A stretch of DNA of 64,000 bases from Alphaproteobacteria bacterium (GTDB lineage Bacteria; Pseudomonadota; Alphaproteobacteria; CALKHQ01): the NCBI GenBank assembly GCA_965227515.1, contig CBDDFZ010000001.1:1856001-1920000 (forward strand). Reading direction: 5' to 3'. How positions within the stretch are numbered: the stretch's first letter is position 1; every line of letters begins with the position of its first letter. Below are positions 1,945 to 57,872 of this stretch, piece by piece. The position numbers were made by a program, and so were the translations under genes. Below the pieces are notes generated by a model. It was not told where the DNA came from, did not search any database, and saw only the letters and a program-made list of their open reading frames with translations.

Positions 1945-3156
1945 ATGACCGACGACGGCGGCAGCGGCTGGGCCTGGCCCGACTATCGCGCCATCTATTC
2001 CTACGCCTGGGACCTGCTGGACGAGGGCGTCGATGCGATGCTCGGCCACATCGGCGACACCGGCGCCAACACGATCACGCTGGCCACCAGCTACCACGCC
2101 GGGCGCTTCATGCGGCCGCATGGGCGCCAGGGCCGGGTGAAGGAACTGGTGGACGGCGCGGTCTATTTCCGCCCCGATATGGCCGAGTACGGCGCGATCA
2201 AGCCGCTGCCGCACCCGATGCTGGACGATTTCGACCCGTTCGCCGAGATCGAGGCGCACGACAGCCTGCAGTCTGTGGCCTGGATCGTGTGCCTGCACAA
2301 TTCGGCGCTGGGCGCGCGCCATCCCGAATTCACCGTGCGCAACGCGTTCGGCGATCATTACTCGTTCAGCCTGGACCCGGCGGCGTCCGAGGTGCAGGAC
2401 TACATCGTGACCCTGTGCACCGATGCGGCGCAGTCCACCAACATCGTCGGCATGGTGCTGGAAACGCCGGGCTATCTGCCGTTCCAGCACGGCCTGCACC
2501 ACGAGTTCCAGTTGATGCCGCTGAACCCGTGGGTCGACCGGCTGCTGGCGCTCAGCTTCTCCGACGCGGCGATGGCCGGCGCGGAGGCCGCCGGCATCGA
2601 TGCCGAGCGCCTGCGCAAGCTGGTGGTGTCGTGGGTCGACGCCTACCTGTCGTCGGACATCGCCATCGACCCGGCGATGGCGCTGGAATGGTTCATGGGC
2701 GACATCCTGGGCGAGCCGGACATGGCCGCCTTCCTGCGCTGGCGCTGCAAGATCGTGACCGACCTGGTCGCGGCGGTGCGGGCGAGCGTGCCGAAGACGG
2801 TGTGGGTCGGCGTCATCCCCACCGTGCAGCGGCCGACGGCGGCGACATGGCTGGAAGGCTCCGACCTTGCCGGCCAGGCGGCCGCCGCCGACTTGGTGGA
2901 GGTGCCGGCCTACCAGCCGAAAGTGGGCGAGGTCGCGGCCGATCTGTTCGATGTCCGCCGCCGGATCGGAGACCAGGCCCGCATGCACGCCATCCTGCGG
3001 CCGGACGTGCCCGATTTGCGCACCGCCGGCGAGGTGGAGGCGGCGGCCGTTGCCGCACGCGACGCCGGTGCGTCGGGACTTTCTTTCTACAACTATGGCC
3101 ATTTGCGCCGGCCGGCTCTGGCCCGCGCTGCTGCCGGATTCAGGGCTTTCGCATGA
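1945..3156 (+). CDS. Hypothetical protein, possibly glycoside-hydrolase-like TIM barrel
   Basis: Host-like codon usage, in an operon between amidohydrolase and SDR (ATGA overlap); motifs TLATSYHAGRF, WIVCLHNS, LSFYNYG. Confidence 0.7.
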   Translation: MTDDGGSGWAWPDYRAIYSYAWDLLDEGVDAMLGHIGDTGANTITLATSYHAGRFMRPHGRQGRVKELVDGAVYFRPDMAEYGAIKPLPHPMLDDFDPFAEIEAHDSLQSVAWIVCLHNSALGARHPEFTVRNAFGDHYSFSLDPAASEVQDYIVTLCTDAAQSTNIVGMVLETPGYLPFQHGLHHEFQLMPLNPWVDRLLALSFSDAAMAGAEAAGIDAERLRKLVVSWVDAYLSSDIAIDPAMALEWFMGDILGEPDMAAFLRWRCKIVTDLVAAVRASVPKTVWVGVIPTVQRPTAATWLEGSDLAGQAAAADLVEVPAYQPKVGEVAADLFDVRRRIGDQARMHAILRPDVPDLRTAGEVEAAAVAARDAGASGLSFYNYGHLRRPALARAAAGFRAFA

Positions 3157-4121: not shown

Positions 4122-5408
4122 GTGCAGGACATGGCAATCGACCACCGGGCACCGTCGCGTCGCGGCGGGTGGATCAGCGCTGTTGTTGCCGCGGGGTGCG
4201 CGGCCGGGCTGGCGCTGGATGCGTTCGCGTCCACGCCCGACGACATGGCGCCCTGGCTGTTCCGGCCGGCGCCGAAGGGCGACCTGACGCCGGACGGTCC
4301 GGTCGGGTCGGACCTTGCCGACGCGCCGGCACCCTGGCTGATGCGCATGCCGACGCTGGCCGAATACTATCTGGTGACCGACTTCGTCGCCGAGGTCCGG
4401 GTGGCGGTGGAGGATGTGTTCGCGCCGGAGAACCTGATCACCATCGGCTACTACTCCGAGCGCTACCAAAGGCTGCGGCTGGAAGCCCGGCTTGCGGTGC
4501 TGGAACTCGCGATGAACGAGGTGGCGGCCCCGGTCGCACCCGACGCAGACCCCATCATGCCGGTCGTTTCCGCCGATGCGGACGTGGACCAGCGTGCCGA
4601 CTTCTCGGCCCTGCACCGCCAGTACCAGTTGCTGTCGGAGCGATGGGACGTGCTGGTCCAGGAGCGCGATTCGCTGGAGGCCCAGGTGGCGGCGCTGACC
4701 GGCGCGCTCGAGGCCTCCGACCGTGCCCACGACGAGCTCACCTACCGCCTCAGCCTGTGGACCATCGACGACATCAACGCCGCCCAGGACGTGATCGCGA
4801 TGACCGGCCTGGACGTGGAGTTGATGCTGCTGCGGTTGGCCGCGTCCCAGCCGGCGGTGTCGCGCGGCGGCCCGTATCTCGCGGCTTCGGCGGCGCCTGT
4901 GGTGAGCGCCCAGGACGAGAGCACGGCCGCACTCGGCAGCCATATCGAGCGCTGGGACGGGCTGCGCCAACTCCTGCGCATGCTGCCGCTCGGCCAGCCG
5001 ATGGACGAATACAAGCTGACCAGCGGGTACGGCCACAGGATCGACCCGATCAATGGGCGCGACGCCTACCATAGCGGTCTCGACTTCGTCGGGCCGATGC
5101 GCACGCCGATCCGCACCACCGCGCCGGGCGTGGTTGCTTTCGCCGACTGGCGTACCGGCTATGGCCGCCTGGTCATCATCGACCATGGGCTGGGCATCAC
5201 CACCCGCTACGCGCACCTGAGCGGCATCCTGGTCGAGGCCGGCGATGTGGTGGACTACCGCCAGCCGATCGGCCTCCTGGGCAGCAGCGGTCGCAGCACC
5301 GGCCCGCACCTGCATTACGAAGTGCGCCTGGATGGTGTCGCCGGCGACCCGATGATGTTCCTGGACGCCGGCCGCTACGTCTTCAAGGCCCAGGCCGAAG
5401 CTGAGTAG
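4122..5408 (+). CDS. M23 family peptidoglycan metalloendopeptidase with coiled-coil N-terminus
   Basis: HSGLDF, TRYAHL, GSSGRSTGPHLHYEV motifs; start may be 4131. Confidence 0.9.
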   Translation: MQDMAIDHRAPSRRGGWISAVVAAGCAAGLALDAFASTPDDMAPWLFRPAPKGDLTPDGPVGSDLADAPAPWLMRMPTLAEYYLVTDFVAEVRVAVEDVFAPENLITIGYYSERYQRLRLEARLAVLELAMNEVAAPVAPDADPIMPVVSADADVDQRADFSALHRQYQLLSERWDVLVQERDSLEAQVAALTGALEASDRAHDELTYRLSLWTIDDINAAQDVIAMTGLDVELMLLRLAASQPAVSRGGPYLAASAAPVVSAQDESTAALGSHIERWDGLRQLLRMLPLGQPMDEYKLTSGYGHRIDPINGRDAYHSGLDFVGPMRTPIRTTAPGVVAFADWRTGYGRLVIIDHGLGITTRYAHLSGILVEAGDVVDYRQPIGLLGSSGRSTGPHLHYEVRLDGVAGDPMMFLDAGRYVFKAQAEAE

Positions 5409-53139: not shown

Positions 53140-55356
<2,217 letters not shown>

Positions 55357-55381
55357 GCGCGGGGGTACTCTCCCACACTGC

Positions 55382-55487
55382 CGTCATGCCCGGGACGGCC
55401 CCCGCGAGGGGGTCGAGACCCGGGTATCCACGACTTGCCATCGTCCGACGAAAGACGTGGATGCGCGGATCAAGTCCGCGCATGACG
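55382..55487. repeat. Family B palindromic repeat (variant with an insertion)
   Basis: CGTCATGCCCGGG...GACGTGGATGCGCGGATCAAGTCCGCGCATGACG. Confidence 0.85.
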
Positions 55488-55630
55488 GACAACACGAGGC
55501 CCATAGCAGCTGAAATGTAGATGGGCTAACGGCCCTTGTTTGGTGGCGTGCATGAGTGGTCGTCCCTCAAGATGTCGGTGTCATACACGGAGTCGGGTTT
55601 GCCGCTCCAAGACATCGAGGAGAGACGACC

Positions 55631-56674
55631 ATGAACTACTATGCCGGGATTGACGTTTCTTTGGAATGGTCATCGGTGTGCGTTGTTGACGGCGCGGGCG
55701 GGATTGTCTGCGAGGCTCGTATTGCGAGCACGCCGGCGGGTTTGTTGTTGTGGTTTGGGTCTTTGGGGATTTCGGTTGAGCGGATTGGTCTTGAGGCGGG
55801 GCCGTTGTCGCAATGGCTTGTGCGGGGATGTAGCGAGGGCGGTCTTTCGGTTGAGTTGCTGGAGACGCGTCATGTTGCGCGGGCCCTTTCGACGATGCCG
55901 GTGAAGTCGGACCGCTCGGACGCACGCGGGATTGCTCAGCTGATGCGTGTGGGCTGGTTTCGTCCGGTTCACTGCAAGTCTTTGGCGGCCCAGGAGATGC
56001 GGGCCCTTTTGAAGGGTCGCGACCAGCTCCGCGCGAAGCTGCACGATCTTGAGATGCACCTTCGTGGTCAGCTGCGGAACTTCGGGCTGAAGGTAGGGCA
56101 CACCACCAGGCGCAGCTTTTCGACACGTATTTCGGAGCTTGTGGCGGGGCATCCGGTACTGGAGGCGGTGGCGGGGGCGCTGCTGTCGGCACGCGATGGC
56201 CTGTTGCTATCGTTCACGGCGCTGGACCGGCAGGTCCGAGCGGCATCGCAGGCGGACGATCGCGCTCGCCTGCTGATGACGGTGCCGGGCGTGGGGAGCA
56301 TTGTCGGACTGACCTACTTGTCGGGAGTGGACGACCCCGGGCGGTTTGCCTCGTCGCGCCTGGTGGGGGCGCACTTCGGCCTGACGCCGACCAAGCGCCA
56401 GTCGGGCGAGAGCGAGATGACGGGGCGGATCTCGAAGGTGGGCGATGCGGACGTGCGTGCAGCGCTTTACGAGGCGGCGCACGTAATCCTGACCCGGCCG
56501 ATCAAGGGCGGGTGGTTGAAGAGCTGGGCGATGAAGCTGGCCAGGCGAGCCGGCATGAGGAAGGCGAAGGTCGCGCTGGCGCGCCGGCTGGCCGTGATCA
56601 TGCACCGGATGTGGGTTGACGGCACCGCGTTCAACCATGCCGGACCGGTGCGCCCGGCGATGGCAGCGGCCTAA
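55631..56674 (+). CDS. IS110 family DEDD recombinase/transposase
   Basis: YAGIDVS, IGLEAG, KSDRSDARGIA (DEDD), VPGVG, RQSG catalytic serine, RISKVGD, VALARRLA; RBS GAGGAG. Confidence 0.96.
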   Translation: MNYYAGIDVSLEWSSVCVVDGAGGIVCEARIASTPAGLLLWFGSLGISVERIGLEAGPLSQWLVRGCSEGGLSVELLETRHVARALSTMPVKSDRSDARGIAQLMRVGWFRPVHCKSLAAQEMRALLKGRDQLRAKLHDLEMHLRGQLRNFGLKVGHTTRRSFSTRISELVAGHPVLEAVAGALLSARDGLLLSFTALDRQVRAASQADDRARLLMTVPGVGSIVGLTYLSGVDDPGRFASSRLVGAHFGLTPTKRQSGESEMTGRISKVGDADVRAALYEAAHVILTRPIKGGWLKSWAMKLARRAGMRKAKVALARRLAVIMHRMWVDGTAFNHAGPVRPAMAAA

Positions 56675-56744
56675 TGGCAAAGACGACCGCCGCATAGGGA
56701 GAACCAGCACACGAGCTTCGGCGGGCGCAGACACCGGCCCGTCA

Positions 56745-56905
56745 AGCGCCGTCCCGCGCCGGGACGATGGATCAGGTCAGGCCGCCATCCAGGATGTCGC
56801 CTCGCACGAGAGCACGCTTCCGTAGATTGGACCGACCGATCCTCGCATATCCATCTTGGTGGCGGCCGTGCGCCGACCCCGTACAGAAGCATGACCCAGG
56901 CGCCG
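56745..56905 (+). ncRNA. Putative seekRNA/bridge RNA
   Basis: 5' hairpin GTCCC..GGGAC; two internal loops carrying matches to the target site and to the circle junction (see findings); ends approximate. Confidence 0.7.
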
Positions 56906-56947
56906 GGACGACGAAAAAGGGATTGACCAACAATGGCCCGTTACAGA

Positions 56948-57031
56948 AGCCTGGGTGGAGCGTAGCGAAACCCGGGAATTCATCGTCTGGGGCAAGGTTC
57001 CCCGGGTTGCACTTCGTTCCACCCGGGCTAC
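56948..57031. repeat. GTAG-type REP pair (REPIN), left GTAG separated by the IS
   Basis: (GT)AGCCTGGGTGGAGCGTAGCGAAACCCGGG ... CCCGGGTTGCACTTCGTTCCACCCGGGCTAC. Confidence 0.85.
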
Positions 57032-57038
57032 GGGCCAA

Positions 57039-57163
57039 TTGTCATCCTCGGCCGAAGCCCAAGAGCACTTGGGCGGAGCGCCGGGGATCCATGGTTGACC
57101 TCGCGCGATGCCTGGAATGGATCCTCGCCACTCGGTCCTTTGGACCTCGGGCAAGGATGACAA
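57039..57163. repeat. Family C palindromic repeat
   Basis: TTGTCATCC...GGATGACAA; homologous to 9487-9612. Confidence 0.8.
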
Positions 57164-57185
57164 TGAGAGGAGGAGAGGGCGCCCC

Positions 57186-57872
57186 CTACAACAACGTCGC
57201 CTGGCGCTGGTGGGGCGCGATGCAGGCGGGCGTGTCGTTGCGCACGTTGTTGACAACGGTGTCGACCTCGTAGGCGGTCAGCGCCTCATCCGGGAACGGG
57301 CCGATCAGCGCGGCGGCGGCGTCGCGGTCGCCATGCAGCCACTGGTCGTGGTCGGCCGGGTCCAGCATCACCGGCATGCGCGGGTGGATGTGGGCGATGG
57401 CGTCGCTGGCGGTGGTGGTGACGATGGTGAACGTCTCGACGGGCTGCGCATCTGGGTCGTCGCGGTCGCGCCAGTGCTCCCACAGCCCGGCGAAGGCGAA
57501 AGGTCCGCCGTCGGCGAGTGTGATGCGATAGGGCTGCTTGCCACCCTCCATCTTGCGCCATTCGTAGAAGCCGTCGGCCACCACCAGGCAGCGCCGGTCC
57601 TTGAACGCGGCGCGGAACATCGGCTTCTCCGCCACCGTCTCGCCGCGCGCGTTGATCGCCTTGTTGCCGATGGCCAGGTCCTTCGCCCAGGCCGGCACCA
57701 GGCCCCAGCGCAGCATGTCGAGCGCGCGGCCACCCTCGCGGTTCAGGCGCACGACCGGCGCGTCCTGGGTCGGCGCCACGTTGTAGCGCGGCTGGAAGTT
57801 CAGCCCGCTGGTCACGTCGAACAGCGTCCGCACCGAGTCCAGCGGCGTGGTGATGGAGTAGCGCCCGCACAT
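57186..57872 (-). CDS. SOS response-associated peptidase (SRAP/YedK-like abasic-site protein)
   Basis: MCGRY N-terminus, RYNVAPTQ, INARGET, GFYEW, IHPRMPV. Confidence 0.95.
   Translation of the reverse strand: MCGRYSITTPLDSVRTLFDVTSGLNFQPRYNVAPTQDAPVVRLNREGGRALDMLRWGLVPAWAKDLAIGNKAINARGETVAEKPMFRAAFKDRRCLVVADGFYEWRKMEGGKQPYRITLADGGPFAFAGLWEHWRDRDDPDAQPVETFTIVTTTASDAIAHIHPRMPVMLDPADHDQWLHGDRDAAAALIGPFPDEALTAYEVDTVVNNVRNDTPACIAPHQRQATLL

Follow-up and report, generated by a model that had tools for sequence, protein, structure and literature searches.

Does the non-coding DNA downstream of the recombinase gene of an insertion sequence in an alphaproteobacterial genome encode an RNA that guides the element, and how would such an RNA read both the target and the ends of the element that it serves? 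The locus lies in a stretch of 64,000 nt (the window, to which positions refer unless another locus is named), and an earlier note on this stretch had read into 56745..56905 a bispecific guide RNA, 3' of an IS110/IS1111 recombinase gene, with a target loop, a donor loop and an AG core. All six of the motifs listed there are found in place (CCATCCAGG, CTCG-CA-CGAG, CCGTAG, CCATCTT and TACAGAAG, with GGTGGCG..CGCCGACC present at 56858-56878), as is the DNA that they were said to match, namely the right end, CCTGGGTGG, TGTAG, ATGGGC and the partner REP. The class of mechanism to which such an RNA would belong was described in 2024 by Durrant et al. (PMC11208160) and Siddiquee et al. (PMC11187229). 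Very probably, the region at 56746-56913, possibly from the hairpin at 56715 onwards, is the bridge or seek RNA gene of an IS1111-group insertion sequence.

The insertion sequence and its target

The recombinase matches two Pfam domains of the IS110 family, PF01548 (DEDD_Tnp_IS110, 9.6e-13, residues 5-150) and PF02371 (Transposase_20, 1.1e-19, residues 212-287), and, among PDB sequences, the ISCro4 transposase (9t56, 5.6e-11, residues 210-336) and IS621 (8wt6, 1.1e-9, residues 198-335). According to Siddiquee et al., elements of the IS1111 group encode a protein of 330-350 aa with the motif GL-P----S(T)G, have their longer non-coding region 3' of the gene, and carry subterminal inverted repeats of 7-17 bp (PMC11187229). 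The element shows each of these hallmarks: its subterminal repeats match at 8/9 positions when 55527-55535 is compared with the reverse complement of 56935-56943, the left repeat being kept in relatives as TAACGGGCC or TAATCGGCC; 275 nt of non-coding DNA lie 3' of the gene (56675-56949) as against 110 nt on its 5' side (55521-55630); and the translation, of 347 aa, has GLTPTKRQSG, which follows GL-P----SG, in its C-terminal domain. By these hallmarks the element is classed as an IS1111-group insertion sequence of the IS110 family, and the earlier assignment of the recombinase holds. A 12-nt inverted repeat on the 5' side of the gene (TGGTCGTCCCTC at 55557-55568 and GAGAGACGACCA at 55620-55631, 11/12 complementary) spans the ribosome-binding site of the recombinase and extends to the A of the start codon; relatives retain this pairing (GGTCGTCCCTCA with GAGGGACGACCATG), so that translation of read-through transcripts may be masked by it. 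Further upstream, a 738-aa reading frame (53140-55356) stops 165 bp before the left end of the element.

The host genome (5.5 Mb, 2 contigs) holds 20 full-length copies of 92-100% identity and one that is internally deleted. The sequence that the copies have in common runs from GTAG ATGGGC... through ...TTACAGAAG and then into CCYGGRTG, with GTAG preceding 20/20 copies, CGTAG preceding 15/20 and CCYGGRTG following the right end in 20/20, so that the insertion site in REP repeats is GTAG/CCYGGRTGN for all 20 full copies (the slash in such strings marks the point of insertion). The left contexts differ between all copies, which therefore represent independent insertions. The internally deleted copy (C1:998353-999264, ~89% identity) is decayed; it has kept both ends and lost what corresponds to ~56230-56827 of the window, and with it the last part of the recombinase gene and the RNA from its 5' side up to ~56827, target guide 1 included.

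The contigs of four other public runs were compared with the window. One of them, from run X2 and 139 nt long, passes directly from 55518 to 56948, so that 1429 nt are left out and 2 nt fit on either side; in this form the locus has no element and reads ...TGTAG/CCTGGGTGG.... Among these contigs no circle junction was seen, though rare forms would escape detection in contigs. The shared crossover dinucleotide is AG, the core that had been proposed, and the element is 1429 bp long. Across the 20 copies and the empty site, insertion is sequence-specific and the duplication of the target is limited to the 2-nt shared core. The occupied REP belongs to a pair forming an inverted repeat (56948-56976 and 57001-57029), and its partner, read on the minus strand from 57033 to 57019 as CCGTAG/CCCGGGTGG, is free of the element at ~70 bp from the occupied site. 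Other target-like REP sites without the element lie at 5327, 28597, 29659 and 40709 in the window, and 112 unoccupied sites of the form GTAG plus CCYGGRTGR are found genome-wide.

Table 1. Positions of the insertion sequence, its target and the predicted parts of its guide RNA
Feature	Positions	Strand	Remarks
Whole insertion sequence	55521..56949	+	1429 bp, AG core counted once, at the right end
Left flank TGTAG	55516-55520		
Left target half GTAG	55517..55520	+	Includes the left AG core copy, 55519-55520
Left end ATGGGC	from 55521		
Left subterminal inverted repeat TAACGGCCC	55527..55535	+	6 nt inside the left end
Recombinase gene	55631..56674	+	347 aa, DEDD and Transposase_20 domains
Hairpin 5' of the guide RNA core	56715..56747	+	Possibly part of a long RNA
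Closing helix, 5' strand	56750..56763	+	Core CGCCGGG 56757-56763; overlaps local hairpin 56750-56766
Target-arm basal stem, 5' strand	56769..56784	+	RNAalifold and pair counts
Target guide 1 CCATCCAGG	56785..56793	+	Complementary to right flank CCTGGGTGG, one U-G
Target-arm distal hairpin	56796..56815	+	Fold of the arm; CTCG-CA-CGAG 56801-56810
Target guide 2 CCGTAG	56820..56825	+	Identical to left target half plus AG core
Target-arm basal stem, 3' strand	56828..56842	+	RNAalifold and pair counts
Donor guide 1 CCATCTT	56851..56857	+	Complementary to A-AG-ATGG, core and left end joined in the circle
Hairpin between donor guides	56859..56880	+	RNAalifold and pair counts
Donor guide 2 TACAGAAG	56882..56889	+	Identical to right end plus core
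Closing helix, 3' strand	56896..56910	+	Core CCAGGCG 56896-56902; one G-A mismatch in the window copy
TTGACC	56923..56928	+	Candidate -35 box (promoter at the circle junction), 21 nt from right end
Right subterminal inverted repeat GGCCCGTTA	56935..56943	+	6 nt from the right end
Right end TACAGAAG	56942-56949		
Right target half CCTGGGTGG	56950..56958	+	Beginning of a REP

Relatives of the element

Relatives were gathered by a scan with one genome per species, which gave 75 loci, mostly in Alphaproteobacteria, with recombinases of 37-69% identity; a profile search found the 3' non-coding region in 56/75 of them. Removal of duplicates left 44 distinct 3' regions, that of the window included, of which 37 were aligned (alignment A1), leaving out the near-duplicates L040, L050, L062, L072 and L076 as well as L083 and L094, in which the 3' half is disrupted. 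The ends of the related elements were located by means of the internal copy of the right end and the subterminal repeats, which yielded usable right junctions for 45 insertions and left junctions for 32. The right end was not found in L021, L063, L079 and L088, nor the internal right-end copy (donor guide 2) in L083 and L094; L037, L071 and L072, with a mis-assigned right end, and L054, with too short a flank, were excluded from the junctions. Across the alignments, the scaffold is conserved and four short slots are variable.

L034 has its whole 3' non-coding region in two tandem copies with equal profile scores (2564-2803 and 2817-3056), and what looks like its right flank is where the second of these copies begins. 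In L096, a distant element of an E. coli plasmid with 27% identity, no RNA motifs in common were seen; a 9-mer, TTATAGTAC, occurs twice in its 3' non-coding region (1873-1892 and 1960-1979, ~87 nt apart) and may represent the same layout with an internal copy of the right end.

Target guides covary with the insertion sites

Taken singly, the matches of one copy carry weak to moderate weight (for a 9-mer with one wobble within 275 nt, p is about 0.01), and in the window copy only GTAG of target guide 2, CCGTAG, matches its own site. Support for the guides comes from covariation, both among relatives and among the copies within the genome. Guide 1 and its own right flank form a run of at least 8 pairs (Watson-Crick and G-U) in 20/32 distinct pairs, with a median of 8, compared with 41/944 cross-pairs, and the set covers, by reading, ~19 different target sequences. 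The flank GGCGGGTT is faced by guide 1 AACCCGCC, for instance, and in a sibling of that element the flank GGCGGATT is faced by AATCCGCC; further pairs of flank and guide are CCCGCATG with CATGCGGG, AGCGGTTT with AAACCGCT, GACTCGAA with TTCGAGTC, AAGGTTTG with CAAACCTT, and AATGTTGG with CCAACATT. Covariation of guide and target across homologues, by which the earlier note had proposed to check its reading, is in this way present.

The correspondence is incomplete, the run being shorter than 8 in 12/32 pairs and no longer than 5 in 7, and the poorly matched pairs include L027, L049, L024, L087, L046, L091 and L034. In both L027 and L049 the right flank fits guide 1 of a sibling and not the element's own, while guide 2 of L049 equals its own left flank, perfectly over 8 nt. 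Drift of the guide after insertion, exchange of flanks between copies, or an RNA supplied in trans could each account for the mismatch in these two elements and also in L024 and L087.

Guide 2 follows the other side of the insertion site. Identity with the element's own left flank extends at least 3 nt beyond AG in 13/27 distinct cases, as against 17/680 cross-pairs, with GCGCCACGGAG, CGGCAGAG, CCCGATAG and CACTTAG as examples of matching guides. Along the RNA, the stretch that would pair with the top strand comes first, on the 5' side, and the one for the bottom strand follows. The bases after guide 2 (ATTGG) were considered as a 'handshake' guide for the left end and rejected, since L043 contradicts this role and the bases are also part of the 3' strand of the arm stem; one case does fit, L058, with CTTGG and a left end of CTTGGG. 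A REP captured inside the element was likewise rejected as the origin of the target guides, which are oppositely oriented relative to the REP and whose layout is shared by relatives with other targets.

One guide base separates two subfamilies within the genome

The copies in the host genome provide a natural test of guide 1, as they split into subfamilies by a single guide base, A or G at 56791. Position 3 of the flank is T in 36/112 and C in 76/112 of the unoccupied sites. Copies with A at 56791 occupy CCT sites in 7/7 cases, compared with the 36/112 among unoccupied sites (p = 5.8e-4), and copies with G are found at CCC in 11/13 and at CCT in 2/13, which does not differ from the background (p = 0.34) and is as G-C and G-T pairing would allow. 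The G copies show a preference of their own at flank position 6, where A is present in 9/13 as compared with 21/112 unoccupied sites (p = 3.3e-4), this A being the Watson-Crick partner of a U in the guide. Over the 20 copies, A or G at 56791 tracks the T or C variant of the REP target.

Donor guides and the ends of the element

Within the 64-kb window, TACAGAAG occurs at two sites only, donor guide 2 and the right end, where 0.24 would be expected and 0/100 shuffles reach 2. Among relatives, 4/4 variants of donor guide 2 (ACAGAAG, AGAGAAG, AGCGAAG and AAAGAAG) reproduce the final 6-8 nt of the right end, AAAGAAG facing the right end AAAGAAA with one mismatch. Donor guide 1 agrees with the reverse complement of core plus left end at 7-8/10 positions in 15/17 distinct cases, and covaries with the left end in the combinations GGCAT with ATGCC, ACACCATC with ATGGTGT, and ACCCAA with CTTGGGT. 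Independent variants are fewer on the donor than on the target side, with 4 types of right end and ~5 of left end. Of the bases past donor guide 2, the first 1-2 match the right flank in some elements and not in others, as judged by eye. Four guide segments thus covary with flanks or ends, in relatives and in the subfamilies of the genome, a pattern that argues for the bispecific RNA 3' of the gene that had been proposed.

The donor matches could also be read differently, with only the target arm acting as a guide in the form of a short seekRNA. The protein would then recognise the ends by their subterminal repeats, and the right-end copy inside the element would be the relic of a duplication or a spare end. 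Siddiquee et al. have reported species of 82-96 nt with target matches only (PMC11187229); CCCCGTACAGAAG (56877-56889) resembles the right end GCCCGTTACAGAAG beyond the guide, as a duplicated end would; and alternative end boxes permit modular transposition in ISPpu9 (PMC12288879). A duplicated right end nonetheless leaves donor guide 1 unexplained, which is complementary and not identical to the left end and covaries with it, and when 56877-56889 was considered as an alternative right end, 0 of 20 copies were found to end at that site. Pairing with the donor is, moreover, established for IS621 and proposed for IS1111 members (PMC11208160). Guidance by the target arm alone is accordingly considered very unlikely.

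Predicted structure of the RNA

On alignment A1, RNAalifold finds two helices with 21 pairs, 15 of which are still paired through two-sided changes. These are the basal stem of the target arm, with two-sided changes in 9/14 pairs and 91% of cells paired over the 37 sequences, and the hairpin between the donor guides, with two-sided changes in 6/7 pairs and 93% of cells paired; a local hairpin, GTCCC/GGGAC, shows two-sided changes in only 2/5 pairs. Taken together, the three helices have 90.3% of cells paired as against 78.8% when shuffled, a level that 0/500 shuffles reach, though these controls overstate the significance because the aligned sequences are related; sliding the partners by 1-3 columns leaves 36-53% of cells paired instead of the observed 90.3%. 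The two main helices contain 89 G-U as against 12 A-C combinations, which points to an RNA of the plus strand. At the position of the distal hairpin of the target arm, all relatives have a hairpin of varying length and sequence.

The closing helix is partly misaligned in A1 and was scored for this reason with an anchored script, which finds a pairing run of at least 6 in 31/37 sequences compared with 96/934 cross-pairs. Its two strands change together, in the matched variants CGCAGGG/CCCTGCG, CGC-GGG/CCC-GCG, CCCCGGG/CCCGGGG, TGCCGGG/CCCGGCA and GGCAGG/CCTGCC, which include both compensatory substitutions and one-base deletions matched on the two strands. The closing helix and the local hairpin share three G residues and cannot both form fully, so that GTCCC/GGGAC is predicted to compete with the closing helix. 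A direct repeat, GCGCCGGGACGA, is present at 56756-56767 and 56899-56910 and gives the 5' GTCCC two possible partners, one nearby and one in the distal copy, the latter making the closing helix longer; in such a form the distal copy is absent from relatives.

The comparative consensus describes a conserved secondary structure that leaves the guides unpaired, and suggests an RNA with a three-way junction formed by the closing helix, the target arm and the donor hairpin. The donor guides are located in this junction and not in a second internal loop. For the second loop of the earlier note this means that the donor motifs are present as described, in a multi-branch junction in place of the internal loop; the interval 56745..56905 likewise gives the location correctly and falls short at its 3' end, as the closing helix reaches to ~56910-56913. 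A three-way junction agrees with a remark by Durrant et al., according to whom the bases that bind the donor appear, in many IS1111 members, to be placed in a multi-loop instead of an internal loop (PMC11208160). The hairpin at 56715-56747 has -18.4 kcal/mol and z = -1.76 in a single-sequence fold, and a hairpin in this position is visible by eye in each clade; the automated consensus gives 0 pairs on a poor alignment.

Folding the window RNA as a single sequence forms the closing helix, and the arm stem forms when the arm is folded alone. The interior of the consensus is missed by such folds, which pair the region of guide 1 to the donor hairpin, and the 276-nt fold has z = -1.37. Because their interior disagrees with the comparative structure, single-sequence folds were kept out of the model. 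A scan of 55300-57200 against Rfam with E up to 10 returned no relevant family, whether or not Rfam 15 includes a model for IS1111 bridge RNA, and its sole two matches are weak microRNA look-alikes on the REPs.

The lack of an Rfam match in this interval and the weak z-score of the fold would suit a 3' region that acts as DNA or as a plain 3' UTR (a protein site, a terminator or a stability element), with the flank matches as by-products of insertion into palindromic REPs, all the more since REPs are palindromic and GC-rich and hence frequently complementary by chance. The same matching of slots to flanks is, however, shown by relatives whose targets are not REP-like, and guide 2 is direct and not inverted, which speaks against a captured REP. 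Helices that stay paired through two-sided changes, together with the excess of G-U over A-C, indicate a strand-specific RNA. A region without a guide RNA is for these reasons considered highly improbable.

A candidate promoter at the circle junction

A promoter scan of the linear element detected no promoter-like site, in line with the reported dependence of IS1111 members on a promoter that is created at the circle junction (PMC11187229). In the window copy, TTGACC is a candidate for the -35 box of a promoter that would be completed only in the circular form. A TTGAC box lies 21-22 nt from the right end in most clades, outside the structured RNA, with TTGCGC in one clade; the -10 element that faces TTGACC across the predicted junction is poor.

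Proposed mechanism

The motifs, the ends, the AG overlap, the conserved helices and the covariation between guides and DNA are direct observations, and the following sequence of events would connect them. The RNA would be a plus-strand product, probably made as the 3' portion of a transcript shared with the recombinase gene and then trimmed, and would fold into a three-way junction closed by the long-range helix of 56750-63 with 56896-910. In the arm (56769-56842), the 5' side of the internal loop, CCATCCAGG, would pair with the top strand of the right target half and the 3' side, CCGTAG, with the bottom strand of the left target half and the AG core; in the junction, CCATCTT would pair with the core and the left end of the element, and TACAGAAG with the bottom strand of the right end and the core. 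By these contacts the RNA would unite the circularised element with the REP site (C)GTAG/CCYGGRTG, where the DEDD/serine recombinase would then swap strands at AG. Transcription, processing, protein binding, the circular intermediate and catalysis are here modelled on the family to which the element belongs.

The RNA gene of the window copy could itself be an inactive relic, the mechanism holding for the family and this element being immobile. The mismatch in the closing helix and the poor match of guide 2 to its own site would be understandable in such a copy. Five copies, that of the window included, are nevertheless 99.2-100% identical to the window over the element, with left contexts that are all distinct; the reading frame is intact, and in another run the locus shows polymorphism for the element. 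Near-identical copies, an intact frame and polymorphism of the locus together imply recent movement, and an inactive relic is therefore considered unlikely.

Several observations can be drawn together into a wider interpretation, which is advanced only tentatively and is judged rather less probable than even: the alphaproteobacterial clade would have a bridge RNA architecture distinct from that of IS621, combined with natural retargeting by a single base and with action in trans between copies. Both donor guides may be single-stranded in a three-way junction closed by the covarying long-range helix, and the competing local hairpin could serve as a switch in maturation or conformation. The A or G at 56791 may divide the REP population of one genome between two subfamilies. 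If this interpretation is true, the presence of L027 and L049 at sites that fit a sibling's guide would reflect an RNA acting in trans between copies.

Comparison with known systems

The closest parallels are the seekRNAs of the IS1111 elements ISEc11, ISPa11, ISKpn4 and ISPst6 (Siddiquee et al. 2024, PMC11187229), which come from the same downstream region and have the same order of strand matches. In IS1111 elements, the RNA lies downstream with its top-strand match 5' of its bottom-strand match, and long forms of 148-172 nt and short forms of 82-96 nt are described (PMC11187229; PMC13604230). The sizes predicted here, ~168 nt for the RNA bounded by the closing helix and ~74 nt for the target arm, fit these IS1111 seekRNAs. 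Subterminal inverted repeats, a protein of the size found here (347 aa) and GL-P----SG are further features held in common with the tested members, and ISPa11 likewise targets a REP (PMC11187229). In contrast to the tested members, the present element has the predicted target GTAG/CCYGGRTG with an AG core.

The comparison with IS621 shows a shared principle and a different layout. The core of IS621 is CT, and its bridge RNA is reportedly also described by Hiraizumi et al. 2024. According to Durrant et al. 2024, the IS621 bridge RNA is likewise bispecific, with a target-binding and a donor-binding part, each of which has two segments for opposite strands flanking the 2-nt core (PMC11208160). 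The two recombinases are related (PDB 8wt6, E = 1.1e-9). The IS621 RNA differs in being encoded 5' of its gene and in presenting two simple internal loops (PMC11208160), and its order of strand matches is reversed relative to IS1111 (PMC11187229). In the present RNA, by contrast, a long-range helix closes the three-way junction that would contain the donor segments.

ISPpu9 and ISPpu10 of Pseudomonas putida, which belong to the IS110 group, likewise insert into REPs and recombine AG of the target with AG of the element (PMC12288879). They differ in being without subterminal inverted repeats, in having the bridge RNA upstream, and in possessing a strong promoter of their own as well as the small RNAs Asr9 and Ssr9 (PMC12288879). 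The ISCro4 transposase (PDB 9t56) is the best match by sequence among solved structures, with only the C-terminal domain aligning confidently.

Among at least 7996 homologues, identity to the recombinase does not exceed 72% once the genome's own cluster is set aside, and the proteins concerned have no informative names; for plasmid records the highest identity is 70% at the nucleotide and 68% at the protein level, under the plain annotation 'IS110 family transposase'. The suggestion that this member and its specificity may be new is borne out to the extent of the 72% limit among proteins. Judged from protein and plasmid records, the RNA is most likely a well-supported new example within a class of guide RNAs that is already known, and the mechanism itself is not new; the element may already be catalogued, for instance in ISfinder.

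Significance

Bridge recombinases are under development for genome engineering, and much of the mechanistic work concerns IS621 and ISCro4, both of the IS110 group. From the clade around the present element, IS1111-type RNAs can be aligned that cover ~19 target specificities found in nature. Their code is readable: ~9 nt specify the right half of the target, the left half is given by 3-9 nt together with AG, and either end of the donor by ~7-8 nt. The natural covariation is unusually clean, and the set includes a natural case of retargeting by a single base inside one genome. While knowledge of the mechanism is left unchanged, such a set is useful for working out how IS1111-type elements recognise their donor ends and for picking orthologues.
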